Assembly (NCBI GenBank): GCA_965205025.1
Contig: CBDBFU010000014.1
Span: 256,001 to 320,000 of the forward strand
Direction of reading: 5' to 3'
Length of the DNA stretch: 64,000 bases
Source of the DNA: Candidatus Poribacteria bacterium
GTDB taxonomy: Bacteria; Poribacteria; WGA-4E; WGA-3G
Shown here: positions 5,245 through 27,691 of the stretch, piece by piece
How positions within the stretch are numbered: the stretch's first letter is position 1
Layout of the letters: each line of letters starts with the position of its first letter
Position numbers and translations under genes: made by a program
The notes under the pieces: generated by a model
What the model saw: the letters and a program-made list of their open reading frames with translations, nothing else
Told to the model about the DNA's origin: nothing
Database searches by the model: none

Positions 5245-5511
5245 ATGTCAGAAACAGAACAATTATACCTTCCTTTACAAACCGAAAGTAGCCATACTGA
5301 TAACGGTTTTTACGATTCACTAAATTTCATCAGAGAAAACGCAAATTCACAATACGGGGTTGGTAAGGTTTTTGAACGACAACCCCTCACACTGCAGGAA
5401 CATCAACAGAAAGCCTATGACGATGTTATCAACGGTTTCAAAGAATCTGATCGTGGCAAACTAATCATGGCGTGCGGCACACGCAACCCCCTTATACTAC
5501 AACAAAAATAG
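5245..5511 (+). pseudogene. Remnant of a restriction-associated helicase (type ISP/Mrr-helicase-like)
   Basis: LQEHQQKAYDDVINGFKESDRGKLIMACGT stops before completing Walker A (GTGKT); appears internally deleted. Confidence 0.6.
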
Positions 5512-8905: not shown

Positions 8906-11900
8906 ATGAACAAAGAAGCAATCAAATCCGCATTAGCAGCTATCACAACTGATAATTTCTTAGACAACACAAATGTACTCTTAGCAACATTAGGATACAA
9001 AAGCGAAAAGACTGCAGACCTATTCGGTTCAGTTGACGAATTCATCAATGAATATGAGGCACCGAACCCAAACACAAAAACAGAACAGGAATTCCGCCAA
9101 CATGTCAAATCTGTGCAATTTGTATTTCAATATACGACCGACGAAATTGTTGACGATCCACAGCTAGAACTATTTGAGCCGGCATCCTTTGATAAAGGAA
9201 ATTACCATAGTTTTATTTTCTGCGCGGTTGAACTAAAAGACAATGACTATTCACGCACAAAATATGCAGAATTCACGAGAGAAATTAACAAACGACTTAT
9301 TACTCCCACCGTTGTCTTCTTTCGTGTAGAAAATAAGATAACAGTTGCATTTGCTGATCGCCGTCCAAACCTAACACCAATCGCTTGACGTACTCGGACA
9401 AGTCACCCTCATCAAGGACATCCGCCTGAACAACCCACACCGTGCACATCTTGACATCCTCTCCGAACTCTCACTTGAGGAATGCGTCGAGTGGATAGAC
9501 GAAAAGAAAAAACAGAAAAACTTCGACGGACTGCTGGCAGCATGGATCGCCAAATTAGATACAGAAGAACTTAACAAACAATTCTATCGGAAACTGTTTT
9601 CGTGGTATGAATGGGCAGTTGAGACAGCAAAATTCCCAACAGATGAGAATCGCATCATAGAGCCTGAGGAGCATGTGATACGTCTCATCACACGTCTACT
9701 CTTTATCTGGTTTATCAAGGAAAAAGGATTGATCGCCAATGAACTATTTAACAAAGCACAAATCCAAGACCTACTGAATGAGGATGACTTTGATAACGGT
9801 GACTCATACTATCGCGCCGTGCTACAAAACCTCTTTTTTGCGACACTAAACACTGAGATAGACAGACGTAAGTTTAGCAAGGAAAACTCAAACGGCCATC
9901 GAAACTTTTCAAAATATCGTTATAAAACACAGATGTCCGACCCCGATAAACTGTTGTCCCTATTTGCAGAAACCCCGTTTATCAACGGTGGCTTGTTCGA
10001 TTGCTTAGATAGTTTCAAAGCCACAGGTGAAGGCGGTTACAGAATTGACTGCTTCTCTGATAAGCAGTATAAGAAATTATCCATCCCCAACTGCCTCTTT
10101 TTTGACGAAAACCGAGGACTCCTACCACTACTTGAACACTACAAATTTACCGTTGAGGAAAACACACCGATAGATCAAGAAGTCGCACTTGACCCCGAAC
10201 TACTCGGCAGAGTGTTCGAAAACCTACTCGCCGCTATCAACCCAGAAACAGGAGAAACGGCACGCAAGATGACTGGTTCTTACTACACGCCACGCGCTAT
10301 CGTTGACTATATGGTGGAGGAGGCGTTGGTCGCTGCTTTATCTCAAAAATGCCAACCAACTGATGGCAATACGGAACTTTGGGATGAACGATTGCATTAC
10401 CTTTTTGACTATGCAAAGATGTGTGATGATGCAAGCGATTGGTTTGACAACAAAGAAACTGACGCAATTGTCAAAACTATCTCTAACCTCAAGATTTTGG
10501 ACCCAGCGGTCGGTTCGGGTGCGTTTCCGATGGGGGTACTGCATAAACTGACACTCGCACTCAGACGGCTTGATCCAGATAATATCCGTTGGGAAAAACT
10601 ACAAAAGGAACTCGCTGGAGAACGCGCAGCAGATGCTTTCAATACCCAAGACCAACAGGAACGCGATGATGAACTCACCGAAATCAGTGACACTTTTGAA
10701 CGTTACAGAGATTCTGACTTCGGACGGAAATTATACTTAATTCAAAATAGTATCTTCGGTGTGGACATCCAACCGATTGCGTGTCAAATCGCCAAACTCC
10801 GATTTTTTATCTCGCTCGCAATTGAGCAGGAATCGGACAGAAACACTGAGAACTTTGGCATCAAACCGTTGCCGAACTTAGAGACGCGATTTGTTGCTGC
10901 GAACACACTGATAGGTATAAATTTATCCGAAACAAAAGGACTGTTCCAAGCTGATACTGTGCAACAATTGCTAAAAGAAATTGATACAATTCGCGAAAGG
11001 TTTTTTCTTGCAAACAATCGCACGCAAAAACGTGACCTTGAAGAGCAGGAGGAAAATTGTCGCGAACAATTAGAAAAAGAATTGGAACGTCTGCGAACAG
11101 AATGGATTGAGAACCGACAAACAGAAATAGAAGCCAAAATTGCACCACTTCCCAACTCAGAACAACGGGAACAGTTACGCGAAAAAGAACAGAAAACGTT
11201 TGAAGCACGGAAAAAAGTGTTTGATGCTGACTTTGAAAATGCTCGCAAAATTGCACAATGGAAACCCTACGACCAGAATGCAAGAACAGATTGGTTTGAT
11301 CCCGAATGGATGTTTGGGGTTACGGATGGATTTGATGTTTTACTTGGAAATCCACCTTATATTAGTCATGATAAAATCCCAAAACAACTTAAAGCAAAAA
11401 TTAAGAATTATTACCAGTCATATCAACCATTTGCCGATTTATATTGTTATTTTATTGAGAAAGCTTTAGATCTACAGAGTGAGATCGGTGTTCTTAGCTT
11501 TATTACCTCAAATTCATACTTGAGAGCCGAGTATGGGGCACCGATCCGAAAATTGCTGCTAAGAAAAAATATATTGCTTCAAATGTTAAATGTTGAGGAT
11601 TCACAAGTTTTCGAAAGTGCAATTGTTAACGTTGCGATAATTATGTCTCGGCAACCGACAAATTCCATGGATAATTTTTGCCTTATTGTTAATTCACCAT
11701 TTTCAGGTAACAGTTTTGTAGACTTTGTGAAAACCAACGGTTTTAATTGTTCCCAAGATTACTTTAATTCAAAGTCGTGGAATCTTGCAGAACCAACACA
11801 TGTTGAACTTCAAAGGAAACTTGAAACATCAGGTAAAACCTTAGATCAGTTGGGTACAAAAATCAGATTAGGTATTGCCACAGGGAGCAATGACGCTTTT

Positions 11901-12593
11901 CTCATAGACGAAAATAAGAAAAGAGAGTTTTGTGAGAAAAATCATGTGAATGCTAAAATAATTAAGCCCGTTTTGAGAGGTAGAGATATTTCTCGCTATA
12001 TATACACCCTATCTGGACAGCATATTATACTTGCTAAAAATGGTGTTAATGTAAAGAAAGATTACCCCGATATATATGAACATTTAGAATCATTTGGAGA
12101 TAAATTCAAAAAACGTGGAGCGCAAGGACAACATTGGACTAATCTAAGGGCTTGTTCATTTTATGACGATTTCAAAAAGGAAAAGATTGTGTGGATTCCA
12201 TTGTCTGATATAGGGCGGTTTACTATCTGTAATGAAGAAGTTTATCTACTTAATTCTGCGTATTTTTTGTTACCACCTTCAGACATCAATTTAAAACTTT
12301 TGTTAGGTATTTTAAATTCAAGAGTAATTCGTTTTTATTTGGGAAACGTTGCAGTAACAAGTGGAATGGGAACGAGCCAATGGATAAACAATTATGTCAA
12401 AGAATTTCCTATTCCAACAGTTACTACTGAACAACAAACTGAAATCATTGAACTTGTGGATCAGATACTTGATGATAAACAAGCTAACCCCGATGCCAAC
12501 ACTTCCTCCCTTGAAAATGAGATTGATAAGCTGGTGTACGAATTGTATGATTTAACGGAAGATGAGATTGCCATTGTGGAGGGGAGTATCTAA
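8906..12593 (+). CDS. Type IIG (Eco57I/TaqI-like) restriction-modification enzyme with N6-adenine MTase and C-terminal TRD; one frameshift near 9375-9387
   Basis: ORF 8906-9388 continues via DVLGQVTLIKDI...LDTEELNKQFY in the frame of ORF 9675-12593; TGSYYTP, LDPAVGSGAF and GNPPY motifs; tail LENEIDKLVYELYDLTEDEIAIVEG. Confidence 0.88.
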
Positions 12594-12779
12594 ATCCCTG
12601 ATGCGGAAGATGAGAAGTCTGAAGTAAAGTCGTAGGTAGGTTTGTTATGATACATTGATATATACTCTTACATTTGATTGGCAAATCTACTTCGGAAATG
12701 TTATGATTAAATTGTTCTTCCTATCTCAACAATTGAGTAGAGAATGTTCTTGAGATTCATAACATAAGGAATTAATTTT

Positions 12780-14204
12780 ATGAGAAAAGGTAAATGCATT
12801 TACTGTAACCAAGAGAAAGAATTAAACGAAGAACATGCTTTTCCCAGATCTCTGCTACAGATAGCGGAAGGATCACCAGAATGGATCATTGATAGACATT
12901 TGTGTGAGGAGTGTAACGGAAAACTGAGCAAACTTGATAAAATACTAACAATGAGAGGTCCCATAGGACATACATGGAGTTTGATTAAGAGTGAATTAGG
13001 TCAGGAAAATGAAAATCAACAATCACTTCGTTATAATCAGAACTGTTATGGCCTTAAGCCTGATAGAATGATGGTGCCAGAACCTGTCTTGGAAAACCGT
13101 ATAGGTTTATTCAAATTATTAGTAGAGAACTGTGAAAACAAGGCATCTTCTAATTCAATCGAAAACTCACTTGATCCTGTGGTTCCGCAGATAATTTTAA
13201 CTTTATATGCAGAATGGCAACAACTTGAGGAGACGAGGGATGAAACAGTAGATAATTTTGATAGTTTAGATATTATTCCCTATACCGACAATGATTTTAA
13301 GGGATCAGTATACTGGATCGGGAATGGAAAAATAATGACACAGGCTTTAAGTGACTCTGTTATTTTGGTGCCGAGATTGTCGGTTCAAAACCATAATTTT
13401 GTGCTGTTTCCTCCTATTCTTCCACCAAACGCTACTGAGGATTTTCCTTTTCCCCATACCTATGTTTTTTCTCAAAAGGCTACAGAATATTTCTTTGATC
13501 AACCAAGAGATTTTCAGTCCAAATTTCTAAGAAATCTTGATTGGATTCGGAGTGATTTGACGATTATAAAAGATAGTAAAAATAAGAAACATGGTAAAGC
13601 AAAGTATTTCAGACAGTCTGTAAAAGCTGACCACATAACTGTTGTAGACAAACAAATATATCTCAAAGATAAAACATATGCTGATATTCCAAGACTCAAA
13701 ACACTACGAGGCAGATTTGCAACAGATGGCAACGCTAAATTATATATTGAGAGAGCCATTGCAAAAATAGGGTTTCACTGCTTTTTGTACCACTATTTTG
13801 ATGAGTTTAATGGACATGAACCCATATTTGATGATATTAAAACATTTATATTTAAGGAAAATACTCCTAATAATTTCGTTATTGAATACAAAGATGTAGC
13901 CGAAAATCCTATTTATTCTTCTAATACACACTTCCACAACATATCATTTTATCGAGATGGACAAAACATTGGTTGCCAAATAATTTTATTTACAGGACTT
14001 TGGAGGAAACCATTTTCCTTTTACATAACTTTGTCGGGTAAGATCAAAAATTGGAACGTTGAGTCTGATAAAACAGAACATATTCCTTTCTATCTGAGTA
14101 GTAAAAGTGACAGAAAGAGACGGGTATATCCTCCAAGCGACTCTGAGATAATACAAAAACCGAGTCTAAAAGATATGTTTATAGTTGGTATAACACGCTA
14201 TTGA
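12780..14204 (+). CDS. HNH-endonuclease-like protein (CxxC...EH...CxxCN)
   Basis: N-terminal KCIYC...EEHAFP...LCEECNGKLS; C-terminal RAIAKIGF motif common in such proteins; AAGGA RBS. Confidence 0.65.
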   Translation: MRKGKCIYCNQEKELNEEHAFPRSLLQIAEGSPEWIIDRHLCEECNGKLSKLDKILTMRGPIGHTWSLIKSELGQENENQQSLRYNQNCYGLKPDRMMVPEPVLENRIGLFKLLVENCENKASSNSIENSLDPVVPQIILTLYAEWQQLEETRDETVDNFDSLDIIPYTDNDFKGSVYWIGNGKIMTQALSDSVILVPRLSVQNHNFVLFPPILPPNATEDFPFPHTYVFSQKATEYFFDQPRDFQSKFLRNLDWIRSDLTIIKDSKNKKHGKAKYFRQSVKADHITVVDKQIYLKDKTYADIPRLKTLRGRFATDGNAKLYIERAIAKIGFHCFLYHYFDEFNGHEPIFDDIKTFIFKENTPNNFVIEYKDVAENPIYSSNTHFHNISFYRDGQNIGCQIILFTGLWRKPFSFYITLSGKIKNWNVESDKTEHIPFYLSSKSDRKRRVYPPSDSEIIQKPSLKDMFIVGITRY

Positions 14205-14239
14205 TTGCTTGAAGAAGTTTTCCGCTATTAGATCAAATT

Positions 14240-15433
14240 ATGAGCACACAAACACAATCCGCAACCCAAAACGCGCTTAACAGAATTCTTGAACTAATCC
14301 GTGAGATAGTAGAGAAATCAGTTAATGGAAACTGCATTTATCGTGGTGAACCTGATCACTATGATAAAGTATCCTCGAATTTCTATAGGATGTATCCAGG
14401 TGGTTTTGACCCAGATGCCTCAACCAATTTAGAGGTCCTACGACAGGAAACTCTAAGAAATGCTCAGCAATACATCCAAGATGACACAATAGATGACTTT
14501 GGACTTTTAACTGAGCTGCAGCACTATGGCAGTCAAACCGACCTTATAGACTTCACAACAGACTATCATATTGCCCTTTTCTTCGCATGCAACGATTCTC
14601 ATGACAAAGATGGTAGGATTGTCGTGTTGAAAAGAACCGAGGATATTGATGAAAAATACAGAGTCCAACAACCTTTAAGACCTCTCAATCGCGTCAAGGC
14701 ACAAAAAAGTATATTCACTCAACCTCATAAGGGATTTATTGATCACAACGATTTAATCACTATTACTGTACCTGCCAATCTAAAACAGTGGATACTTATT
14801 TATCTACGGTTGTCCGAGAATATATCTACTCAAAGCCTCTACAACGATCTATACGGCTTCATCCAAGATAAACATGTACGTTACTCACGCGAAGCAAGTC
14901 TTCCACTTGTTTTGGCTGAACTACAATTAAAACACATTGCGGACAATAATCTATCGGTTGAAGAAAAACAATCTACATATCAAGAAGTAATAGAACATTA
15001 TATAGAAGCTTTACAATACTCACCGTATAATGTTAAGCTTTATGTGGATCAAGGTAAATGCTACTTAGATGTCAACCAATATGATTGTGCAATTGAAGCT
15101 TGTAGTAAAGCATTGCTCTTACATCCCAATTATTTTGAAGCTTATGTTTGTCGTGGTCTTGCTTTTTTCCATAAAAAGGATTACAGAAGTACTATAGAAG
15201 ACTTTGACTATATTATAGAAGCAAGTCCAGAGAATACTATGGTATACATCTTTAGAGGCATTGCATTTTTACACCTACAAGAATGGGAAAAAGCAAAATT
15301 AGACTTTGAGGCTGCCAAAGAGATGAGTGAAACTATTACCATTTTATTTCGTCAGGACTCTCAAAGCATTTTAGATTTTGAGCAGAAGTATAACGTTAGA
15401 CTACCCGCAGACATCGCTGCTCTAATAAAATAG
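14240..15433 (+). CDS. FRG-domain + TPR protein
   Basis: IYRGE, LQHYGSQTDLIDFT, ALFFAC and RVKAQKSIF (FRG motifs), followed by TPRs and the shared tail DFEQKYNVRLPADIAALI. Confidence 0.85.
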   Translation: MSTQTQSATQNALNRILELIREIVEKSVNGNCIYRGEPDHYDKVSSNFYRMYPGGFDPDASTNLEVLRQETLRNAQQYIQDDTIDDFGLLTELQHYGSQTDLIDFTTDYHIALFFACNDSHDKDGRIVVLKRTEDIDEKYRVQQPLRPLNRVKAQKSIFTQPHKGFIDHNDLITITVPANLKQWILIYLRLSENISTQSLYNDLYGFIQDKHVRYSREASLPLVLAELQLKHIADNNLSVEEKQSTYQEVIEHYIEALQYSPYNVKLYVDQGKCYLDVNQYDCAIEACSKALLLHPNYFEAYVCRGLAFFHKKDYRSTIEDFDYIIEASPENTMVYIFRGIAFLHLQEWEKAKLDFEAAKEMSETITILFRQDSQSILDFEQKYNVRLPADIAALIK

Positions 15434-15665
15434 CAGGGTAACAGTAAACGCTTGCCATAGCGAATTATCTGATGTTACAGATTATCAATCCGTGTCCTCT
15501 GTGTCCTCCGCAATTCAGACAACAAAGAACGCCGAACATGCAATACACCTCTCACACCAAACACAAACCAATGTCAAGGCTCTCACTTGTAAATGAGATT
15601 GATAAACTGGTCTATGCCTTATATTACCTCATTGATAAAGAAATTGCCGCTTTGGAGGGAATAGA
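15434..15665 (+). repeat. Cassette junction repeat J1, including a degenerate copy of the type IIG gene 3' end
   Basis: Similar to 18785-18975, 20644-20920, 22888-23037 and 25651-25837; 15586-15669 translates as LVNEIDKLVYALYYLIDKEIAALEGIE. Confidence 0.8.
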
Positions 15666-17042
15666 ATGAGCACTGAACAAACTGAGTTAAACAGAATCTT
15701 AGAAATAATCGCTGAAATAGGATATAAATCTGCTACCAGTGATTATATCTACCGCGGTGAACCAGAATGCTATCCGAAAGTTTCCTCAAATCTCTATCGT
15801 GAACTTGAAGATGCAAACCTTTTACATCCCCATCTTAAGATAGAAGATATCCAAAAAACAGAATTGGAAGACGCTAAAGGGTATGGGTACATCAAGAAAA
15901 CTGACGATTTTGATATTCTCAGCGAAATACAACACTTCGGTGGAAAAACAAACTTATTAGACTTTACGTGTGATTACAGGGTTGCTATTTTCTTTGCATG
16001 TGAACGATTCCCTTTCAATGATGGCAGGATTATCCTGCAAGACAAAAATGGAATAATAAAAGATTGCATTAGAACATCTCAGAATGTAGTGCAAGGAAGC
16101 CGTCCCGATGTGCAAAAAAGCATATTCGTTCAACCACCTGAAGGCTTTATAGAACCGGATAAGACAATCGTCATTCCAAATTCACTCAAACAGCCTATCC
16201 TGAAGTATCTTGAAGATGAATTTGACATATCTACTGAGCGAATCTATCCTGATCTTCATGGCTTTGTTAGTAGACAGAAGACACGCCTTGGGACATATAA
16301 GGAACTTGGTAAAGGAAATAAATGTAGAGAAAACGGGGATGCGGAAGATGACCTTACAAAAAAGAACAATCAATATGAAAAGGCAATTGGGCACTATACT
16401 AACGCAATACAACAGATGCCTGGAATTGCTTTAGCATATATCGGACGAGGGTTCGTTTATTCTTCAAAAGATGACCCCGATAACGCCCTTGCCGATTATG
16501 ACAAGGCATTAGAATTGGACCAAAATTCTAAGGAGGCATATAAAGGTCGTAGTGCCGTTTACCGCGCCAAAGATGAAATTGATAAGGCAATTGATGACGC
16601 TGTTAAGTTAGTAGAACTTGATCCATCTGATGCTGCTGCACATTGCGCTCTCTACCTTGCTTATTGGGATAAAAATGATTTTGAAAACGCATCTGTTAGC
16701 ATAAGTGAAGCAATCCATCTGAAACCAGATCAATCTGAATTCTACTTTTCGCGTGGTGATATTTACTTCACCAAAAGAGATTTTGACAATGCCATTAAAG
16801 ACTATAACAAAGCAATGGAACTAAACCTCAATTCTTCCAAAATCTATTATAACAGGGGTTTGGCTTATATCCTCCAGAGAGAATGGACCAAAGCAAAATA
16901 TGACCTGATTAAAGCGAGGGACTTGAAGATGGATATCACTGTTGAGTTTTCCAAATTTGGAAGTATTGAAAATCTTGAGCAAGAAATAGGTATCCAGTTA
17001 CCGCCAGACATTGTTGAAATGCTAACGCCTCCACAGTCATAG
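15666..17042 (+). CDS. FRG-domain + TPR protein
   Basis: IYRGE, IQHFGGKTNLLDFT, AIFFAC and VQKSIF; about 6 TPRs; tail LPPDIVEMLTPPQS. Confidence 0.85.
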   Translation: MSTEQTELNRILEIIAEIGYKSATSDYIYRGEPECYPKVSSNLYRELEDANLLHPHLKIEDIQKTELEDAKGYGYIKKTDDFDILSEIQHFGGKTNLLDFTCDYRVAIFFACERFPFNDGRIILQDKNGIIKDCIRTSQNVVQGSRPDVQKSIFVQPPEGFIEPDKTIVIPNSLKQPILKYLEDEFDISTERIYPDLHGFVSRQKTRLGTYKELGKGNKCRENGDAEDDLTKKNNQYEKAIGHYTNAIQQMPGIALAYIGRGFVYSSKDDPDNALADYDKALELDQNSKEAYKGRSAVYRAKDEIDKAIDDAVKLVELDPSDAAAHCALYLAYWDKNDFENASVSISEAIHLKPDQSEFYFSRGDIYFTKRDFDNAIKDYNKAMELNLNSSKIYYNRGLAYILQREWTKAKYDLIKARDLKMDITVEFSKFGSIENLEQEIGIQLPPDIVEMLTPPQS

Positions 17043-17068
17043 CAATATTAAAACTGTCTGATTGGATA

Positions 17069-17992
17069 TTGATGAAAATGGAAATGATTGATAGATTTCG
17101 TGGGCAGGAAGGAAATAAACGGCTTATTTCGGCATTACGCACACAAGCCATCTTTCATAACAACGAACCTTTAATAAAGGAAATAGCAGACCAAGCTGAA
17201 CTTTTGCAGTTTGAATCAGGAAAGGAATTAATAACTCAAGATAATGTGGATAATGATATCTATTTTATTTTATCTGGACGACTTTCTATCGTTGTTAATG
17301 GACGCGAAGTGGCAATTAGGAATTCTGGACAGTACGTAGGTGAAATGGCGTTGATTGATCCATCTGCTAAGCGTTCTGCCTCGGCTATTGCTATCGAACA
17401 AACGGTTGTTGCGAAAATCTCTGAGGCATCTTTCTATCCGTTAGCAAATAAATATCCAAAAGTCTGGCAGCTAACCGCGATAGAAATTTGTAATAGATTA
17501 CGCCAAAGGAATAGGTTAGTTGTTTCTAAAAATCCACGTCCAGTCTTGTTTATAGGTTCTTCATCGGAATCTCTTGAGGTAGCACGGGCAATTCGTTCTA
17601 ATTTTAATCACGATGATTTTGTTATAAATTTATGGACAGATAAAGTTTTTGGTCCTTCACGGTTTCCAATTGCCGAACTTGAAAAAATGGTTCAACAAGC
17701 CGATTTCGCAGTGTTAGTGCTGGGTCCTGACGATAAGGTAGAAAGTCGAAACGAGAAATCAGATGCACCGCGCGATAATGTAATTTTTGAGTTAGGACTA
17801 TTTATGGGAGCTTTATCACATGAACGAACCTTTATGGTTGTCCCTCGCGAGTGTGATATTAAAATTCCAACTGATTTGTTAGGTCTTATTCCTTTGAAGT
17901 ATAAATCAGATGACTCTAATAATCTTACTTCCTTATTAGGTGCGGTCTGTGATGAACTTCGGGATATAATTAACGAAATGGGTGTTAAATAA
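17069..17992 (+). CDS. pycTIR: Pycsar effector PycTIR (cNMP-binding domain + TIR NADase)
   Basis: N-terminal cNMP-binding domain (GQYVGEMALI...RSASAIA); C-terminal CAP12/Pycsar-type TIR (LFIGSSSE, ADFAV, PRDNVIFELGLFMG, KIPTDLLG); adjacent to a cyclase. Confidence 0.9.
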   Translation: MMKMEMIDRFRGQEGNKRLISALRTQAIFHNNEPLIKEIADQAELLQFESGKELITQDNVDNDIYFILSGRLSIVVNGREVAIRNSGQYVGEMALIDPSAKRSASAIAIEQTVVAKISEASFYPLANKYPKVWQLTAIEICNRLRQRNRLVVSKNPRPVLFIGSSSESLEVARAIRSNFNHDDFVINLWTDKVFGPSRFPIAELEKMVQQADFAVLVLGPDDKVESRNEKSDAPRDNVIFELGLFMGALSHERTFMVVPRECDIKIPTDLLGLIPLKYKSDDSNNLTSLLGAVCDELRDIINEMGVK

Positions 17993-18013
17993 TTTTATAT
18001 AAGGAGAATTATA

Positions 18014-18709
18014 ATGAGTTTAGTTGACGATTATACTGAAGCAGTTAAGGAGATATTTGAGGAAGAATGGGAGACTCGTGAGGGGCAAAAAGTTCCAGAA
18101 TCTGAAGATTTGAAGTTAAGTAACGATGCCGTGGAGTTAGATGGGACAGTGCTTTATGCAGACCTTGATGATTCTACAAACCTTGTGGATAATTACGATC
18201 CAGAATTTGCAGCTGAAATATATAAAGCGTATCTTAATTGTGCTGCTAAGGTGATACGGTCTGAGGGCGGTGAAATTACTTCTTACGATGGTGATCGTAT
18301 CATGGCAGTGTATATTGGCGATGAAAAAGATGATTCTGCTGCTCGTTCAGCATTGAAAATAAACTACACAGTTAAGAAGATCATCAATCCTCTCTTAGAA
18401 GAACATTATCCTGATGAGGATTATCGTGTAAAACAGGTCGTGGGTATTGACACCAGCGAGTTATTTATAGCACGCACTGGAATACGTGGATCAAATGATC
18501 TTGTTTGGGTTGGACGTGCCGCGAACTACGCAGCGAAATTATGTTCACTTTCACCTAATTATCCCTCACGACTGACCAAAGCGGTATACGATAACTTGGA
18601 TAACTCAGTTAAGTATTCAAGTGAAGGGAAGCTTATGTGGGGGGCTGCAAAATGGACAGATATGAATAACATGAAAATTTATCGATCAACTTGGCGGCGG
18701 AAAGTATAG
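18014..18709 (+). CDS. pycC: Pycsar pyrimidine (probably uridylate) cyclase PycC
   Basis: Class III cyclase motifs LYADLDDST, YDGDRIMAV and GIRGSNDLVWVGRAANYAAKL; AAGGAG RBS; paired with cNMP-TIR. Confidence 0.9.
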   Translation: MSLVDDYTEAVKEIFEEEWETREGQKVPESEDLKLSNDAVELDGTVLYADLDDSTNLVDNYDPEFAAEIYKAYLNCAAKVIRSEGGEITSYDGDRIMAVYIGDEKDDSAARSALKINYTVKKIINPLLEEHYPDEDYRVKQVVGIDTSELFIARTGIRGSNDLVWVGRAANYAAKLCSLSPNYPSRLTKAVYDNLDNSVKYSSEGKLMWGAAKWTDMNNMKIYRSTWRRKV

Positions 18710-18784
18710 GTAAGTTATGCTATTGACTAATTGGAAAATCGAGAGACTATTTGAATCGCTTATGGAGCAAGGATTGTAGATTTT

Positions 18785-18975
18785 CAATCAGTGTTAATCT
18801 GCGTAATCCGCGTCAATCCGCGATTCTGATAACAAAGTACCTCGAATATACAATACACCCTCACACCAAAACACAGACCAATGTAAAGACTTACACCTGA
18901 AAATGAGATTGTTACGCTCGTATACGCATTGTATAATTTAACAGTAAAGAAAATTGCGATTGTGGAGAAAAAAGA
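18785..18975 (+). repeat. Cassette junction repeat J2, right part, with R-M 3'-end copy
   Basis: aatccgcgattctgataacaaag...cacagaccaatg...cctgaaaatgagattg...attgcgattgtggag, directly before the ATG at 18976. Confidence 0.8.
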
Positions 18976-20643
18976 ATGAATACATCAAATCAATCTAATA
19001 CCTCAAATGAAAAACCAAGCACTATTGAGGACATCATCCGGACTATACAAGAAAAGTCAAAAGATGGTAGCTACATCTTCCGTGGTGAACGCCAATGTCG
19101 TAATAAAAAAGTTTCCTCAAAACTTTATCGAGACTTTGAGGATATAGACTCAGAAACATTTGATATTGAGGTAATCCAAAAAGAGATGCTTAGCGGTGCT
19201 AAAAAACATACTGGACATTATCCACAATCAGGGGAGACACCTCCAGACTTCCGTCCAACTCTCGCGAGAATGTTTAGGGTGAGAGAAGAAGATACTGCAG
19301 AAACTATTGATTTTGAGATACTTACTGAAATCCAACACTATGGTGGTAAGACAAATCTAATTGATTTCACGACCGACTATTGCATTGCCCTATTTTTCGC
19401 ATGCGATGGTCACCATGACAAAGACGGTCGATTAATCCTACTAAAAACACAGAATATAAAAGACATGATCAAGTATCCCAAGGAGCCAAGACATCGGGTT
19501 ATCGCCCAGAAAAGTGTAATTGTGCGTCCGCCGAAAGGTTATATTGAACAGCACGAGTATCATATAGTAAAAATCCCCGCTAAACTCAAAGAGGAAGTAC
19601 TACAGTATTTAGAAAAATATCATGGGATTTTCACGGAAACAATCTATAATGATCTTCATGGTTTTATTAGAAACCAGGATATTCATGGAGACGCCAACAC
19701 ATCTTTTTATAGAGGACTCGCATGTAGCAATAGAGGAGATAAAGTGGAAAGCAAAGAAGAAAAACAGAAGGAATATGAAGAAGCTATAACACACTATACT
19801 AAGGTAATCGAATTAAGACCCGATTTTGCTGGGGCATATAACAATCGTGGTAGTGCCTACAGCGATAAAGGTGAGCTTGACAGAGCTATCAAAGACTATG
19901 ACACCGCAATAGAAATCAAACCTGATTATGCTAATGCATATAATAATCGTGGTAGTGTTTACAGCGATAAAGGTGAGTTTGACAAAGCTATCAAAGACTA
20001 TGACACCGCAATAGAAATCAAACCTGATCATGATGCATATATCAATCGTGGTAGTGTTTACAGCGATAAAGGTGAGTTTGACAAAGCTATCAAAGACTAT
20101 GACACCGCAATAGAAATCAAACCTGATCATGATGCATATATCAATCGTGGTATTGTCTACAACAAGAAAGGTGAGTTTGACAAAGCTATCAAAGACTATG
20201 ACACCGCAATAGAAATCAAACCTAATTATGCCAAGGCATATAATAGTCGTGGTATTGCCTACGGAGAAAAAGGTGAGCTTGACAAAGCTATCAAAGACTG
20301 TGACATGGCAATAGAAATCAATCCTAATTATGCTGACGCATATAACAATCGTGGCTTCACCTATCAAAAAAAAGATGATGTTGATAACGCCATAAAAGAT
20401 TATAACACCGCGATAGAATTGGATCCTGGAATGGCAATAGCCTATACTAATCGAGGAGAAGCATGGCTACACTTAAAAGAATGGGATAAAGCGAGAACCG
20501 ACTTAATGACCGCCAAGGACATGGGCATAAGTATTATAGAGTCATTTCAGAATGACTATAAAAGCGTTGCCGACTTTGAGCAGAAGTATAACGTTGAACT
20601 CCCCGAAGACATTGCCGCACTACTAACACCTCCACAGTTATAG
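18976..20643 (+). CDS. FRG-domain + TPR protein with tandemly expanded TPRs
   Basis: IFRGE, IQHYGGKTNLIDFT, ALFFAC and AQKSV; about 8 TPRs; tail DFEQKYNVELPEDIAALLTPPQL. Confidence 0.88.
   Translation: MNTSNQSNTSNEKPSTIEDIIRTIQEKSKDGSYIFRGERQCRNKKVSSKLYRDFEDIDSETFDIEVIQKEMLSGAKKHTGHYPQSGETPPDFRPTLARMFRVREEDTAETIDFEILTEIQHYGGKTNLIDFTTDYCIALFFACDGHHDKDGRLILLKTQNIKDMIKYPKEPRHRVIAQKSVIVRPPKGYIEQHEYHIVKIPAKLKEEVLQYLEKYHGIFTETIYNDLHGFIRNQDIHGDANTSFYRGLACSNRGDKVESKEEKQKEYEEAITHYTKVIELRPDFAGAYNNRGSAYSDKGELDRAIKDYDTAIEIKPDYANAYNNRGSVYSDKGEFDKAIKDYDTAIEIKPDHDAYINRGSVYSDKGEFDKAIKDYDTAIEIKPDHDAYINRGIVYNKKGEFDKAIKDYDTAIEIKPNYAKAYNSRGIAYGEKGELDKAIKDCDMAIEINPNYADAYNNRGFTYQKKDDVDNAIKDYNTAIELDPGMAIAYTNRGEAWLHLKEWDKARTDLMTAKDMGISIIESFQNDYKSVADFEQKYNVELPEDIAALLTPPQL
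19843..20346 (+). repeat. Intragenic tandem repeat: five 99/102-bp TPR-coding units
   Basis: Units start at 19843, 19945, 20044, 20143 and 20245; units 2 and 3 are identical over 99 bp. Confidence 0.9.
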
Positions 20644-20920
20644 CAGCATAGTAAAAAACACTCACCTTAGCAGGTTAACTGATGTTACAGATTCCCAATC
20701 CGTGTAATCTGTGTAATCTGTGTAATCCGACGAATTCCATACGCGGATTCGGCGTTGATTTGGTGATTCAGACAACACAGAACCCCAAACAGACAGGACA
20801 ACCCTAACACCAAAACACAGACCAATGCAAAGGCTTACCCTTGAAAATGATCTTGCTAAGCTGGTCTCCGAACTGTCCAATTTAACGGAAAAAGAAATTG
20901 CGATTGTGGAAAGGTCTGTC
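20644..20920 (+). repeat. Cassette junction repeat J3 with R-M 3'-end copy
   Basis: Contains the (GTGTAATCT)n motif; 20840-20920 translates as LENDLAKLVSELSNLTEKEIAIVERSV. Confidence 0.8.
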
Positions 20921-21033
20921 CGATTGGCAAAAGACGCTTAGATTGAGAGGGAAATAGGGATTTTGGTTGATATGTCGGGGTTGGTTGCGTTATCATTACC
21001 ATCAAGGAATACGAATTGTGCAGGAGAAAAGTT

Positions 21034-21699
21034 ATGCAAGAACTAAATCAAGGGTTTGTTAATGCTTCTTACGACCCCAATTTTATTTATGCTGATAACA
21101 CACTATCTCGCATACAGGATAGTGTTGAGGCGTACAATAACCAAGGCGTTAATCATGCCAAAAATGGACATTATGATCTTGCCATCATCTCCTTCAAAAA
21201 AGCGATAGAACTAAAACCTGATTATGCTACATCTTATTATAATCGAGGTCTAACTTATCTGCTCAACGACGAAGTTGATAAGGCAATAAGAGATTATACA
21301 AAAGTAATAGAACTTAACCCAGATAATGCGGAAGTCTATAACATGCGTGGATGTATTTATTTCAGCAAAAATGTGGTTGACCATGCCATTAAAGACTTTA
21401 ATAAAGCAATAGAGCTGAACCCAGATAATGCCGTTGCCTATAACAACCGCGGTTTAGCTTATGCGAAAAAAAGTCAGGTGGAATTTGCTATTGCTGACTA
21501 TTCTAAAGCGATAGCACTCAATCCCGATTTTGCTGAGGCATATTATTATCGCGGAGGTGCATTGTTACGACTCGAAAAGCGAGAGAGGGCTAAATTAGAC
21601 CTCGCGATTGCCAGAAGCATGGAATATGACTCTCTCATTGCCTTAGACAAAATACTGAAAGATTACGATCGCGCATGGAAAACCCTCGCCAACTTATGA
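21034..21699 (+). CDS. TPR-repeat protein
   Basis: AGGAG RBS before the ATG at 21034; about 5 TPRs (AYNNRG...AIELNPD). Confidence 0.8.
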   Translation: MQELNQGFVNASYDPNFIYADNTLSRIQDSVEAYNNQGVNHAKNGHYDLAIISFKKAIELKPDYATSYYNRGLTYLLNDEVDKAIRDYTKVIELNPDNAEVYNMRGCIYFSKNVVDHAIKDFNKAIELNPDNAVAYNNRGLAYAKKSQVEFAIADYSKAIALNPDFAEAYYYRGGALLRLEKRERAKLDLAIARSMEYDSLIALDKILKDYDRAWKTLANL

Positions 21700-21786
21700 A
21701 ATATTTAGATGATTGCAGAGAATAAAATCCGCGTCCTCTGTGTCCTCCGCGAATATCCGCGATTCAGATTTTACTCAAAAGTGAAA

Positions 21787-21816
21787 TTGACAAAACCGGC
21801 ACATGTATAGTATGAT
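21787..21816 (+). promoter_or_regulatory. Putative sigma70 promoter
   Basis: TTGACA-18 bp-TATGAT upstream of 21854. Confidence 0.45.
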
Positions 21817-21853
21817 TTAACATTAGAGGTATCTGCATTGTGGTGATCAAAGT

Positions 21854-22887
21854 TTGAACACACAAACAACCGAACTGAACAAGATTTTAGAGATAATTGG
21901 TAGGATAGCAAAAACAACTGCGGATGGAGACTTCATCTACCGCGGCGAACCCGAACATTATAAAGAAGATTCGTACTATGAGAAAGTATCCTCAAGTCTC
22001 TGGCGTGACTGTAGAAAGGAGATTGGAACAGAGGAGTTTGATATAGAAGTCATCCAAAAACAAATGCTGGAAAAGGAGACGTAAAAAACATGCAGACACA
22101 TACAGGACAGGCCTCCTACGATACCGCTATCCAGCACTATAACAAAGCAATCGCTTCAAAACCGAATTTTGCCCACGCTTATAACTATCGCGGCATTGCC
22201 TATAGTAATATAGGTGAGTTTGACCGCGCGATTGAGGATTTCAATAGAGCTATACAACTCAAAGATGACTATGCCGAGGCTTACAGTAATCGTAGTGGTG
22301 TTTACCGTATTCAAGGTGACTATGACCGCGCCATTAAGGATTGTAACACAGCGATAAGACTCGACCCCAATTTGCCAGAAGCATATAACAATCGAGGGAT
22401 AATTTATAAACTCACAGGCGAAATAGATCGGGCTATTGAAGACTATAACACGGCTATAGTACTTGATCCAAACTTCGCTTACGCTTATTACAATCGCGGT
22501 ATTGTCTACCACGAAAGAGACGACTTTGAGCGTGCCATCAGAGACTATACCAAGTCAATAGAACTGAGACCAGACCTTGTCCATCCCTATAATAACCGCG
22601 GGAATGCATACACTCAAAAAGGCGCGTATGAACGTGCTATAAAAGACTATGATGCGGCGATAGAACGGAACACTGATTTAGCAGAGCCGTATTACAATCG
22701 CGGCATGGCGTTTTTAACCCTCGAAAACTGGGATAAGGCAAAATCGGACCTAACAACTGCTGTAGAACTCAAAGAAACTATTGTCCTTGAGAACTTCAGC
22801 AAAGACTATAAAAGCATTGCTAACTTTGAGAAGAAACATAATGTTACCCTACCAGAAAACATCACCGCACTGCTAACACCTCCATAG
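21854..22887 (+). pseudogene. FRG-TPR paralogue with most of the FRG domain deleted; TPR part (22090-22887) intact
   Basis: 21854-22084 matches the N-termini of the paralogues (ELNKILEII...IYRGE...KVSS) and then jumps out of frame to KGDVKNMQ...YDTAIQHY; same C-terminal tail LPENITALLTPP. Confidence 0.75.
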
Positions 22888-23037
22888 CCATAGCAAAACA
22901 GAAAACACTCACCTTAGCAGATTACCTGATGTAACAGATTACCAATCCGCGTTTTCCGTGTTCTCCGCAATTCAGACAACAAAGAACCCTGAAGGGATAG
23001 GACAACCCCCACACCCAAACACAGACCAATGCCAAAG
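22888..23037 (+). repeat. Cassette junction repeat J5, interrupted; resumes at 25102-25125
   Basis: Ends in cacagaccaATGCCAAAG; the continuation ATGCCAAAGctttcacttgaaaat lies at 25102. Confidence 0.75.
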
Positions 23038-24723
23038 GGGTGTCTACAGTTTTTGGCATTAATTTATACCATTTCTGGTAATTAAAGTCTCATTAATAGA
23101 ATCTCTTTTTTGTAGCACAAACTGTATGAAGATTAAGAAAATATTTCGGTAATTCTAATTTTTCCATACCCGGTAGGTGCGGTTTCCTAACCACGGGGAA
23201 TGCTAAATAGCATTCATACCGTTGATTCGAATTTCTAACACATTACCGAATTATTATTTTAAGCTTCATTTAGTTTGTGCCGTATTAGATTACATTTCAC
23301 AAAAACCTGTAATGCGAACCCATTTTTTAGAAATGGTATCAGATAAAATCGAAGATACATTTCATTCACGCCATTGTTAAAACACAATAAACATATGTGA
23401 TTCACGGAAAATTGGTATACTTAAAATTATAAACCCTTATAGAATAAGGGCTCGTAAAATTGCTCCGTGAAGGTTTCCGTGAAAATGCTATCAACTCAGA
23501 ACGATAAATATTAACACTTTTTCCATAAAACTTAAAATAATTTGAAGAAAATATAAACATCTAACAACTAACACATATATCACAATAACATAAAATAAAT
23601 TAAATATATTTGTCAAAATCAAAACAAAATGATACAATACTATATCGTTCAATAATTATAAACTAAAAATAACACGTTACTTGGGAGATACGAAATATTA
23701 TTTATATCGTGAAAGTATAACTATTTTCTACAGTGTATCTCAAAAATACGAATCGTTCATAACCATATAATTACTCTTCGTAGGGACGGGTTCTCCCCGT
23801 CCGTTATTTCAATATAAAGTACAGTGTAAGAACAAAAAATTCTCCATATATATGATTTATGAGATAAGCTCAAATTATTTAGACTTCTAAACTTTATGCC
23901 AAATTCAACCAAATCCACTATCTGGGAAATAGGAAAATCCATGTTAGAATTACAACCAAAATATTCAGAATTATCACCCCATAAGCAGATACAGAGGAAA
24001 ATCAATGCGAATTCAACCGAATATTTTTTTAGTTTTTCTAATTTTAATATTTTACACCGATTAATCAAATCCTTTGTTATCCCAATCCCCAACAGGGTTT
24101 ACGGCTCATTAAAAAATCATTTCTTAAAAAGCAACTAAAAAAACTTGAAAAACTAAAAGAGCTAAAAAAACTAAAAATTAGACCGGCTTCAAACAAAACA
24201 GACTATCATGCACAACAGTAAACTACAGCGTATCTCATTACTACGAATCGTCCATACAGATATAATTCTCTTCATAGAATTCGGATTTCCCCATCCGTTG
24301 GTTGAAAATATAGCAAATGGCACGTACAAAGAATCCTCCAAATCTATGATTTATGATATATGTTCCAATATCTTGTCAAAATGGAAACACAAAATATTTC
24401 ACATTCAAACAATCCTAAATCAATGGATCAAAAGAAAAGTAAAAGACACAAAATTCATCACCACTTTATAATTTTTACAAATTCTTGTAACCTTAAAAAA
24501 TAGATCTAAACCCAGTGTAGTACTGACGGGATAGAGGTTTTTCCAATGTCACACCATGTGACAAAAAGTGTAACTTTATTCAACATATAAATAACTAAAA
24601 TATTACTATTGTGAACATAAAAAAACAGCAAGATTACAGTAAAATTACCCTCGGTTCAATATAATACATAGAAAAAAGATCCCTATGATACCGTTATATT
24701 CATGCCAAAAACTTTACACACCC
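23038..24723. mobile_element. Non-autonomous or decayed IS-like element, 22-bp TIRs, 9-bp target duplication ATGCCAAAG
   Basis: Left GGGTGTCTACAGTTTTTGGCAT, right ATGCCAAAAACTTTACACACCC; ATGCCAAAG at 23029-23037 and 24724-24732; no intact transposase inside. Confidence 0.75.
23066..23339. mobile_element. Nested ATACCATTTCT-type MITE with inner ATGAAGATTAA element and a 34-bp hairpin element
   Basis: Same architecture as 3380-3850. Confidence 0.75.
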
Positions 24724-24732
24724 ATGCCAAAG

Positions 24733-25101
24733 GGTGTAAACTTTTTGTCACCATAGGTGTTAATTTACACATTAGACTCTTCTGTAGGCGGGGAATGCCT
24801 AAATGGCATTCATACCGTTGATTCCGAACTCCGATTCCCGACTCTTCTCTTCCTCTTCGTAGGGGCGGGGTCTCCCTGACCGATATTTGTATCACAATCT
24901 TCATGAGGATTAAATAAATATTTCGGTAATTCTAATTTTCCCAAACCCGGTAGGTGCGGTTTCCTAACCGCACTGGATTTTTCTTTAAAATTACCGGATT
25001 AAAAAATTAATCTTCATCCAGATTGCGTCTTGCGGTATAGCACAAACTAACAGTTTATGCTACAAAATAGACACATATAGTGACAAATTATTTACATACC
25101 C
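24733..25101. mobile_element. Second MITE inserted at the same ATGCCAAAG target
   Basis: Left GGTGTAAACTTTTTGTCAC, right GTGACAAATTATTTACATACCC; third ATGCCAAAG at 25102-25110; contains REP-like palindromes and the free ATGAAGATTAA-type element at 24903-25017. Confidence 0.65.
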
Positions 25102-25192
25102 ATGCCAAAGCTTTCACTTGAAAATCCATTTGACGTTATGATATACTGCTGATACAATCAGACTGCAAACATAATATAAGGAGGATTAATCC

Positions 25193-25597
25193 ATGAACGG
25201 CACCGAAAAGGTTGTAAAACATCTGGAAATGACGCAAGCCGTTATTAACCGCTTGGGACGCAACAGTTTTCTCTTAAAAAGTTGGAGCATGACGATCCTC
25301 GTTGCAGCAATGGTCTTAATCACAAGAGAAAACCTGCAAAATTCAAATTTTGTCTTGGTCCTCTTCCTTCCCATCGTAGGATTTTGGATTCTGGATGGAT
25401 ACTTTCTTTCGCAGGAACGGTTGTTCCGATATGTCTATAATGATATCAGAGAGCAAACTGATACCGATTTCAAGATGGATCTCGGCAAGCACAAGGACAA
25501 ACCGAAAAGTAGTTGGATATCCGCTATTTTTTCAGTAACGCTTATTATTTTTTATCTGATAGAAGTCCTTTTTGTGAGTGCAATTGCCTATTTTTAA
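25193..25597 (+). CDS. Small 3-TM membrane protein, possible defence effector
   Basis: GGAGGA RBS; KHLEMTQAVINRLGRNSFLLKSW...FWILDGYFLSQERLFR with three hydrophobic segments; bracketed by junction repeats. Confidence 0.7.
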   Translation: MNGTEKVVKHLEMTQAVINRLGRNSFLLKSWSMTILVAAMVLITRENLQNSNFVLVLFLPIVGFWILDGYFLSQERLFRYVYNDIREQTDTDFKMDLGKHKDKPKSSWISAIFSVTLIIFYLIEVLFVSAIAYF

Positions 25598-25650
25598 ATT
25601 GATTCTAAGTCGATATGAGATGCGTCTTTTCGGTAATACCAAGATTTCTA

Positions 25651-25837
25651 ATCACCGCACTGCTAACGCCTCCACAGCCATAGCAGCATAACAGAACTCC
25701 CTTCTTAGAAAATTACCTGATGTTACAGACTGCCAATCCGTGAAATCCGTGTAATCTGTGTAATCCGCGATTCAGACAACAAAGAATCCCGAACAGACAA
25801 GACAACCCTCACACCCAAACACAGACCAATGCCAAAG
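25651..25837 (+). repeat. Junction repeat J6, including an orphan TPR-gene tail (ITALLTPPQP*), followed by another left TIR at 25838
   Basis: Closely similar to 22861-23060; 26126-26256 and 26697-26787 also duplicate 23511-23638 and 23393-23484. Confidence 0.8.
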
Positions 25838-25875
25838 GGGTGTGTAAAGTTTTTGGCATTAATTTACTTAATATA

Positions 25876-27079: not shown

Positions 27080-27137
27080 ATGTCAAATACATTAGAATAA
27101 ACACTAAGACAAATAATAATTTTACTTGGTCAAAACT

Positions 27138-27691
<554 letters not shown>

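Follow-up and report, generated by a model that had tools for sequence, protein, structure and literature searches.

Decayed copies of a restriction-modification gene end link stacked defence-type genes in a Poribacteria genome

Chromosomal defence islands acquire and rearrange genes even where no mobile element can be seen, and several described systems can be compared with the locus studied here. Integrative elements accrete in tandem at gene 3' ends: every newcomer rebuilds the end of its target gene, and the former end is pushed downstream. They encode an integrase and recombine at a fixed core. In the T4-type phages RB49 and phi1, a repeated promoter-bearing linker (PeSL) was proposed to be where homologous recombination adds, removes or exchanges single genes, no integrase being involved (PMC2839356). 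Restriction-modification (R-M) units inserted with long target duplication are flanked by long repeats across a stop/start codon without a mobile element, and in IIG genes the C-terminal specificity regions are swapped between conserved flanks (PMC2853133). Sedentary chromosomal integrons and CALINs form ordered, co-oriented and variable arrays, rich in anti-phage genes and adjacent to a fixed head (10.1101/2024.07.02.601686). In the minimal mobile elements and maf/fha silent cassettes of Neisseria, alternative genes recombine between conserved flanks (PMC1797815).

In the window, that is, the whole stretch of 64,000 nucleotides analysed, defence-type cargo genes were found stacked behind an R-M gene and joined by decayed copies of the R-M 3' end, approximately its last 100 bases. 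The array resembles all of these systems in part. Like PeSL, it has a repeated linker, putatively promoter-bearing, before variable genes and no integrase was found; unlike PeSL, the linker is a co-opted R-M coding end on a bacterial chromosome, conserved at 70-85%, and has no clear terminator hairpin (PMC2839356). Whereas the R-M unit is the inserted cargo in the target-duplication system, this locus repeats the R-M gene end as its target and has reused it for unrelated defence cargo as many as four times (PMC2853133). The array shares order, co-orientation, variable anti-phage cargo and a fixed head with sedentary integrons, but has no IntI, no attC and ragged breakpoints, and its cassettes are larger and bring their own expression signals (10.1101/2024.07.02.601686). 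As in maf/fha, short repeats of the upstream gene reappear in downstream cassettes; the Neisseria repeats, however, serve to exchange either alternative C-termini or entire loci, always at fixed syntenic positions, whereas the repeat in this array derives from the 3' end of the gene itself, cargo is added on and the island lies at different chromosomal sites (PMC1797815). In contrast to tandem integrative-element accretion, neither an integrase nor a fixed core was found in the array. No description of such tail relics was found in the literature searched; supplements or subscription journals may hold one. We propose the locus as a concrete, testable route by which a defence gene's own conserved end would seed and express an array, with the tail relic as a simple marker for cassette boundaries and new candidate defence genes.

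Array layout and junction anatomy

The features of the array are as follows.

5522-8821, plus strand: PLD-SNF2 helicase, island head (Pfam PLDc_2, SNF2-rel, Helicase_C; PADLOC HKD+Snf2)
8906-12593, plus strand: type IIG-like (Eco57I/TaqI_C) R-M gene, frameshifted near 9385 (ORFs 8906-9388 and 9675-12593; three-frame translation)
12460-12593, plus strand: original R-M tail, with TTGATA-17-TATGAT at 12523-12551 and GGAG close to the stop
12780-14204, plus strand: 474-aa protein with a weak N-terminal HNH match (HNH_5, E 5e-4, below cut-off)
14240-15433, plus strand: FRG-TPR protein, 397 aa (Pfam FRG and TPR; PDC-S15)
15431-15665, plus strand: junction 1 (spacer A, repeat half, spacer B, tail copy 15586-15664 leading to ATG 15666)
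15666-17042, plus strand: FRG-TPR protein, 458 aa (Pfam), with homologues behind the same relic at other loci and under other heads
17069-18709, plus strand: Pycsar pair, PycTIR effector and PycC cyclase (PADLOC, E 2e-104 and 9e-105, respectively)
18787-18975, plus strand: junction 2 (repeat half, spacer B, tail copy leading to ATG 18976)
18976-20643, plus strand: FRG-TPR protein, 555 aa, in a relative the first gene after an intact R-M gene
20641-20918, plus strand: junction 3 (spacer A, repeat half, spacer B, tail copy)
21016-21720, plus strand: TPR-only gene, 227 aa, overlapping the 5' stub of a doc gene (from 21675)
21858-22887, plus strand: broken FRG-TPR gene (FRG remnant and 265-aa TPR frame) with its own TTGACA-18-TATGAT in front
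22891-23037, plus strand: junction 4, first part (spacers A and B, interrupted by a MITE-like insertion)
23038-24723 and 24733-25101, no strand assigned: two tandem MITE-like elements, with an identical 9-bp duplication between and flanking them and dispersed repeats inside
25102-25192, plus strand: junction 4, remainder, with a 9-nt tail stub (uninterrupted form in L033, L038 and L041)
25193-25597, plus strand: 134-aa membrane protein, PDC-M50A-like; in relatives a ThsB-type TIR gene comes next
25651-25837, plus strand: junction 5 (orphan 30-nt TPR-gene tail, spacers A and B; MITE end at 25838)

The R-M gene joins an Eco57I-type adenine methyltransferase and a TaqI_C specificity domain in one large polypeptide (Pfam, PADLOC), and its N-terminal 160 aa matched no Pfam or PADLOC family. 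A preliminary description of this DNA had named it a type IIG gene. The domains agreed with a type IIG-like assignment, but this head is frameshifted near 9385, and junctions also occur behind heads other than type IIG. A public-run contig matched the frameshift region (9256-9725) without difference, and an intact paralogue of 1197 aa lies elsewhere in the same genome. The cargo is of defence type, comprising the Pycsar pair, FRG-TPR proteins and PDC-M50A (Pfam, PADLOC); the PycC cyclase adjoins a cNMP-binding TIR effector, as Pycsar genes do (PADLOC), and several cargo proteins had no Pfam match. Inspection of the island boundaries at 4936 and 26790 found neither a boundary repeat nor an integrase.

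The R-M 3' end (12508-12593) was found again at 15586-15664, 18896-18971 and 20839-20918, with 73-82% identity to the original over 73-92 nt (genome-wide E 2e-5 to 2e-13), and as a 9-nt stub at 25116-25124. Alignment thus recovered every copy previously claimed, at 15586, 18896, about 20840 and, as a stub, about 25117; the copies at 15586 and 18896 do end in GGAG and run straight into the ATGs at 15666 and 18976, as had also been stated. Going outward, identity to the head tail is 73, 77 and 82%, and a gradient of relic age with distance from the head, looked for among the window copies, was absent. The longest exact matches of the window copies were 13-15 nt to the head tail and 11-31 nt between junctions, which makes them poor recombination substrates in their present state. 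The R-M homology probably reaches about 45 nt further upstream, into the "spacer", the extension having an alignment score of 31.0 compared with 26.6 +/- 1.1 (maximum 29.0) in 60 shuffles. An ATG in the spacer was considered as the start of a small translated tail peptide and rejected, because many copies have a stop or frameshift behind it. The junction had no match in Rfam.

Each junction is a mosaic drawn from a TPR-gene tail, half of a genome-wide repeat, a spacer and the R-M tail. In the (GTGTAATCT)n part we see one half of a repeat that is dispersed through the genome, where its end has 109 copies. The mosaic does recur, as the proposed unit of about 230 bp implied, but it is not one fixed block that separates all genes: the junction at 18896 has no TPR tail and no first spacer, and the gene boundaries HNH/FRG, FRG/PycTIR and PycTIR/PycC have no junction. 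Partial junctions were real at 22888 and 25651, while the one suggested at 21727 is the dispersed repeat alone, preceded by the doc-gene stub. Junction 3 together with the TPR-only gene was found again at a second locus of the same genome.

Junctions 4 and 5 are both interrupted, at one and the same base, by a MITE-like insertion with 29-nt arms and a 9-bp target duplication. The duplication was present in 2 of 14 paired MITE ends only, and no transposase was found within the window elements. A MITE end lies 16 nt ahead of the stub TTGAAA here, and of 86 such ends in the genome, some of which share flanks and are non-independent, 18 have a TTG hexamer at that distance. Promoter-targeting Mutator-type elements (p-MULT 3/4) insert 15-17 nt ahead of the -35 box, and the window elements resemble them in terminal inverted repeats, direct repeat and a 16-nt peak before the -35 (PMC3942029).

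Promoter and ribosome-site motifs in the relics

The tail copies differ in the motifs that they keep. The copy in junction 2 has TTGTTA-17-TATAAT at 18909-18937, that in junction 1 has a weak -10 (TATTAC), and that in junction 3, which has no adjacent ATG, has lost its -10 (TCCAAT), leaving a consensus -10 in one of the three window copies. In junction 4 an extended -10 promoter motif (25118-25147) takes its -35 from the stub, as TTGAAA. TATAAT is already present in 40 of 59 intact R-M genes, and it was therefore inherited rather than gained.

Gene-coupled relics preferentially keep the -35/17 nt/-10 motif: their hexamer columns (n=18) differed by 0.050 compared with 0.174 elsewhere (permutation p 0.0055), whereas uncoupled relics (n=30) had no hexamer difference (p 0.37), and no relic had a deletion within the 17-nt -35/-10 spacer. 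Losses of the -10 among spacer-B relics gave Fisher p values of 0.008 and 0.0007, which are overstated and were set aside because the losses fall in one clade. Promoter-like motifs in the AT-rich region (64 compared with 52.8 +/- 8.0) barely exceeded chance. No terminator-like site was called at junctions 1, 2, 4 and 5, and one weak stem was seen (insertion at 20731).

Crossover, cassette movement and proposed routes of assembly

The 5' half of the 18896 junction is 94% identical to a relic of another genome, and its 3' half is 93% identical to an intact R-M end that stands ahead of the same FRG-TPR gene in a relative, both values resting on segments of 45-50 nt. This junction is a crossover product with its breakpoint inside the tail. 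Three cassette families stand behind both intact R-M genes and relics (TIR-TPR, 7 and 5; FRG-TPR, 1 and 2; a 352-aa protein, 1 and 2, respectively), and every window cassette for which a homologue with 60% identity or more exists is also seen in other neighbourhoods. On a contig from another study, the 15666 gene is joined to the 25193 gene across about 500 nt, as read from record coordinates. Of 46 copies of spacer A, only 12 lead into spacer B, and of 34 copies of spacer B, 16 have A in front of them; orphan TPR tails range from 0 to at least 66 nt and the tails after spacer B from 0 to 74 nt. Junction breakpoints are therefore ragged, and the TPR tail and repeat half also reassort, so that the R-M tail is not the sole crossover zone. 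The idea that cargo has been swapped across the R-M tail was upheld by the variable cargo and at least one in-tail crossover, but other crossover zones exist. Gene gain, loss and swap with breakpoints in a linker, as in PeSL, are indicated by the mosaic junction, the cassettes found in both contexts and the other gene orders. Neither circles nor junction-to-junction joints were found among the 15 of 341 joints listed from contigs of four runs, and these 15 came mostly from dispersed repeats. ComEC is present in the genome.

We consider it somewhat probable that the array arose as the host recombined tail linkers which also serve as promoter and ribosome site, in the manner of PeSL and not of an integron. 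Ordinary host recombination at short common linkers would have assembled the array without an integrase. The 3' end of these type IIG-like genes is conserved across otherwise variable specificity domains and carries a predicted ribosome site for the next gene, along with a sigma-70-like -35/17/-10 motif of predicted function. Once a tail is displaced or duplicated downstream, DNA consisting of cargo plus tail could cross over within it, the donor being perhaps a circle that formed when the DNA between two tails looped out, or else linear DNA from a relative. Insertion ahead of the resident first gene would displace the latter behind a hybrid relic, of which the 18896 junction is one instance. 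The TPR-gene tail and repeat half would provide additional crossover zones, and new genes may come in through imprecise joins beside them, consistent with the ragged ends observed. Relics directly on a gene may be retained for expressing it, while those without a gene would decay, as the motif correlation suggests.

A less probable, still credible, account is that the copies are passive scars and not reused crossover sites. Repeated replacement or deletion of the R-M head, together with tandem duplication of a tail plus TPR gene, could leave tails behind, which would persist as promoter or ribosome site or through drift. The low identity between copies agrees with this, as do R-M remnants as long as 79-141 codons, orphan tails set in housekeeping surroundings, local tandem tail duplications (L119 and L177) and the one MITE insertion common to junctions 4 and 5, which points to duplication. 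Against it stand a single relic lineage (spacer B) that heads many unrelated genes and is joined to different 3' halves, and the movement of the same cassette between intact and relic tails. It is rather unlikely that a trans-acting site-specific enzyme, either a tyrosine recombinase working on the R-M 3' end or else a nuclease or transposase that goes with the dispersed repeat, made the joins. Sharp tail-specificity across phyla would suit such an enzyme, and so would a Nitrospirales-labelled locus in which a tyrosine-recombinase-like gene immediately precedes a tail copy with inverted tails nearby, and GxxExxY genes inside repeat pairs at junctions in four loci; but the breakpoints are ragged, the two Phage_integrase matches of the genome are both on other contigs, no recombinase was found among the 71 of 142 array genes scanned, and the junction has no stable hairpin.

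The preliminary description had called the array integron-like, and its variable, co-oriented defence cassettes accreting beside a fixed head do recall sedentary integrons (10.1101/2024.07.02.601686). This mechanism was not borne out. The best TIGR02249 (IntI) match in the 95% complete genome scored 48 bits against a cut-off of 265. The attC search used the consensus of the R''/R' boxes, and no such pair was found on either strand of five junctions. Six of seven junction folds were no better than shuffles (z above -1.3; best z -2.0). There was no fixed crossover point, and the cassettes, up to 5 kb long, have a promoter motif of their own in the junction. A true integron or CALIN with unusual attC sites is thus very improbable. 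No more credible is an assembly artefact from repeats in a metagenome bin: although 23-27 kb is dense in high-copy repeats, the tail copies are diverged rather than identical, the scaffold was found again in other genomes, and a 6430-nt public-run contig equals 12551-18980 across two junctions with zero differences, a run that may be the source sample and so supports the assembly without being independent.

Occurrence in relatives and other phyla

In this genome, tail and spacers are confined to three R-M loci and are thus not a dispersed repeat unrelated to such loci, an outcome that would have told against the preliminary description; the repeat core is genome-wide. Cassette content and order vary, so that the second outcome of this kind, identical order in relatives, was not seen either: relatives, which are different species rather than strains and are mutually non-independent, have the same scaffold with different cargo and order, and gene order is not conserved. 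Copies of the last 120 nt of the R-M gene lie downstream of it at 11 of 41 Poribacteria-labelled loci and at 6 of 22 loci from other phyla, whereas nearly every other 120-nt window had none, and other gene ends had such copies in 0 of 48 and 1 of 17 cases. A scan for the spacer-tail pattern across metagenome contigs gave no match.

Matches in frames shorter than 200 aa numbered 22 of 80 for the tail (E up to 1e-6) and 0 of 102 for a motif IV control, a control biased by the fact that a gene end needs one break alone to give a short frame; therefore, 20 chosen loci were inspected and the classes counted by hand. The 22 tail matches comprised about three extra copies behind an intact gene, one displaced tail, 11 orphans (10 inspected), three out-of-frame own tails and four at contig ends. 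The relic signal outside Poribacteria suggests a general habit. Tentatively, the conserved last 30-40 codons of Eco57I/type IIG-like genes might be a built-in landing pad for defence cassettes in several phyla. Such a dual-coded end could serve at once as protein helix, expression signal and crossover site, with cassettes inserted in order, and the whole might be an integrase-free counterpart of the integron founded on a defence gene, possibly helped by a dedicated recombinase in some lineages; both suggestions are as tentative as the first. One way in which a first tail copy may arise is shown by L119, where a tail is duplicated in tandem as an exact 86-nt repeat.

Defence island and its junctions

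The junctions lie in a defence island with the following features.

5.5-25.8 kb, all genes on the + strand: defence island
+ strand: PLD-SNF2 helicase
8906..12593, + strand: type IIG-like Eco57I/TaqI_C R-M gene, with a frameshift near 9385
+ strand: HNH-like protein
+ strand: three FRG-TPR genes
+ strand: Pycsar pair
+ strand: two TPR frames
+ strand: 134-aa membrane protein

PMC9503650 assigns FRG to the ART superfamily and describes it as a potential anti-viral NADase; for the FRG-TPR fusions an anti-viral role is putative, and TPR proteins may have a host-interaction role. The closest relatives of the R-M gene's 3' end carry the label Candidatus Poribacteria, which points to that phylum. 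Five of 38 relatives with pyrR were compared at this site. In these, the gene ending at 4936 lies within 0.5-4.3 kb of pyrR, and neither an R-M gene nor an array intervenes; all 22 kb of the island are therefore an insertion here. Neither an integrase nor a repeat was seen at the island's boundaries. A short ORF at the left edge (5245-5511), ending in a helicase motif-I-like stretch, is probably what is left of a previous head gene. To the left of the island, at a distance of 3 kb, are a split methyltransferase and a likely type II endonuclease gene (32-1621); pyrR occupies two frames at 27126-27691, a similar split being found in two close relatives.

Profiles of the junction, based on the window together with two paralogous loci, divide it into four parts: the final codons of a TPR gene and spacer A; one half of a dispersed repeat; spacer B; and the R-M tail, that is, the 3' end of the R-M gene. 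The preliminary description had placed tail copies at 15586, 18896 and 20840 and a stub at ~25117, and these positions were confirmed far above chance. As for confinement of the junction to R-M loci, this held for the tail, spacer A and spacer B, whose 7, 5 and 6 matches in the whole genome all fall at three R-M loci, but not for the repeat, whose end had 109 matches genome-wide. An array typically opens with a tail and closes on spacer A, so a full junction joins the right-hand end of one unit to the left-hand end of its neighbour. In its 3' part, spacer B probably consists of older R-M coding sequence. Thus defined, the R-M tail relics (displaced, decayed tail copies) linking defence cassettes are real.

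Halves of the same dispersed repeat flank GxxExxY genes in four loci outside the window (L038:8533-8940, L049:13326-13673, L122:12966-13415 and L128:11492-11899), and the repeat also occurs 3' of the stop codon in most intact Poribacteria R-M genes examined. A doc gene overlaps TPR genes and provides their final codons at L002:7401-7793, L047:10606-11007 and window 21675-21720, the last a remnant of the first 15 codons only.

Cassette turnover and probable crossover sites

The spacer-tail pattern was found in 10/112 genomes of the family, one of which looks like a chance match, and 9 of the 10 belong to the window's genus, this genome counted; control matches were 0. Forty regions, picked from search matches, carried the same scaffold with TIR-TPR, ThsB-type TIR, SIR2, AlbA_2, HD, AAA-DUF4435, PIN, Doc and unnamed genes (the ORF scan covered 71 of 142 listed ORFs, first set). 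Arrays were headed by IIG genes and also by type ISP-like, SIR2-linked and NACHT genes. Cassettes of the window recurred elsewhere in other orders; on a contig from another study, the 15666 gene precedes the 25193 gene by ~500 nt (orientation from record coordinates). The cargo was thus variable, as had been proposed, in content and order among relatives carrying the same scaffold. In the domain scans, four cargo proteins had no Pfam/NCBIfam match over the cut-off and are candidate new defence genes: L033:13350-14408 (352 aa), L037:3515-4957 (480 aa), L109:8310-9470 (386 aa) and window 12780-14204 (474 aa). At L001:9943-14007, L051:3516-9928 and L109:10898-14374, a TIR-TPR or FRG-TPR protein carries a fused TaqI_C-like specificity domain, with an AAA ATPase next in line; the arrangement looks like an undescribed sensor-effector pair using a borrowed R-M target-recognition domain.

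In several genomes, an intact R-M gene overlaps the start of the gene behind it, whose ATG lies 38 nt past the -10 motif, precisely the distance found at 15666 and 18976. Three cassette families occurred behind relics and intact R-M genes alike. Insertion by crossover within the tail would predict a mosaic in which the 5' half resembles a relic and the 3' half an intact R-M end; in the 18896 junction, the 5' segment had 94% identity to a relic of another genome and the 3' segment 93% identity to the intact R-M end preceding the same FRG-TPR gene. The preliminary description had called the array integron-like, with no integrase visible. The latter was correct for the island, and the two Phage_integrase matches in the genome were both on other contigs. 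An integron mechanism was not supported, since the genome had no IntI over the cut-off and the junction no attC features, and because ends were ragged on both sides and spacers A and B reassorted across the repeat half, the sequences argue against one site-specific core. The array is not an integron. ComEC was present in the genome. Exact matches between tail copies were short and no circles were seen in the assembled contigs, both of which count against present-day activity.

In the way it works, the array most resembles the shuffling of PeSL, the promoter-bearing linkers of T4-type phages (PMC2839356), together with the insertion of DNA by long target duplication known from R-M loci (PMC2853133). 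Homologous recombination between shared defence domains has been discussed as a possible route of hotspot turnover (PMC13586616), but linkers like the R-M tail relics are not described in the available portion of that account, and no published description of them was found in the literature searched. Building of the array by recombination at such linkers is slightly more likely than not.

At L209:6048-11680 and in L166, a type IIG gene faces the C-terminal half of another such gene in inverted orientation, a possible specificity-domain shufflon; L209 also has a tyrosine-recombinase-like gene and more inverted tails. At L211:8875, L220:4178 and L228:4191, the R-M frame stops just ahead of an out-of-frame tail, as if the specificity-domain/tail join were a frequent breakpoint.

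A promoter motif in the tail

In the DNA, the tail codons I-D-x-L-V-Y-x-L-Y-N/D read TTGATA-17-TATAAT or TATGAT, a motif already present in 40/59 intact genes. In the relic set (119/199 matches kept after removal of identical contexts, with loci overlapping between searches), TATAAT occurred in 15/18 gene-coupled relics, which run directly into the next ATG, versus 15/30 uncoupled ones, and the -11 A was lost in 0/18 versus 10/30, although the losses in spacer-B relics represent one clade, coupled relics are related to each other and the region is AT-rich. This pattern held in the subset seeded without the promoter-containing pattern (12/15 and 7/19). A column test with an anchor excluding the promoter gave p values of 0.0055 for coupled relics, 0.37 for uncoupled relics and 0.16 for intact genes. 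Within the window, only the 18896 copy had the consensus -10.

Junctions 4 and 5 (22891 and 25651) were interrupted at the identical base by insertion of a MITE-like element, which is accompanied by a 9-bp duplication. This family (window 23038-25110 and 25838) has 29-nt inverted ends, 86 of them genome-wide, and 18/86 lie 16 nt ahead of a TTG hexamer; PMC3942029 reports this spacing for Mutator-type elements that target promoters. One end lies 16 nt ahead of TTGAAA at 25118 in the stub, and this placement supports a promoter at the stub, whose -35 differs from that of the full tail. Within this genome, the family can serve to mark promoters.

Tail copies at other loci

Loci were chosen by the tail motif and by 3 kb or more of sequence beyond it. 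Among them, the last 120 nt of the gene recurred downstream on the same strand in 11/41 loci labelled Poribacteria and in 6/22 with other labels (Desulfobacterales, Planctomycetaceae, Bacteroidetes, Nitrospirales, Phycisphaerae and Anaerolineae), two-tail loci having two chances of being drawn. Almost no downstream copies were found for any other R-M gene window or other gene ends. In the Desulfobacterales case, the copy terminates a second partial R-M frame. In another phylum, sampled as an even draw of 200 genomes plus the centre genome, 22/80 tail matches lay in frames <200 aa versus 0/102 motif-IV matches (hand count), a control biased in that a gene end needs a single break to yield a short frame. 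Inspected loci had displaced or orphan tails, or extra tail copies separated by one or two genes. Arrays of several junctions that include the spacer were seen in one Poribacteria clade only. At L119:4484-4640, an 86-nt tandem duplication of the R-M tail, nearly exact, immediately follows the stop codon.
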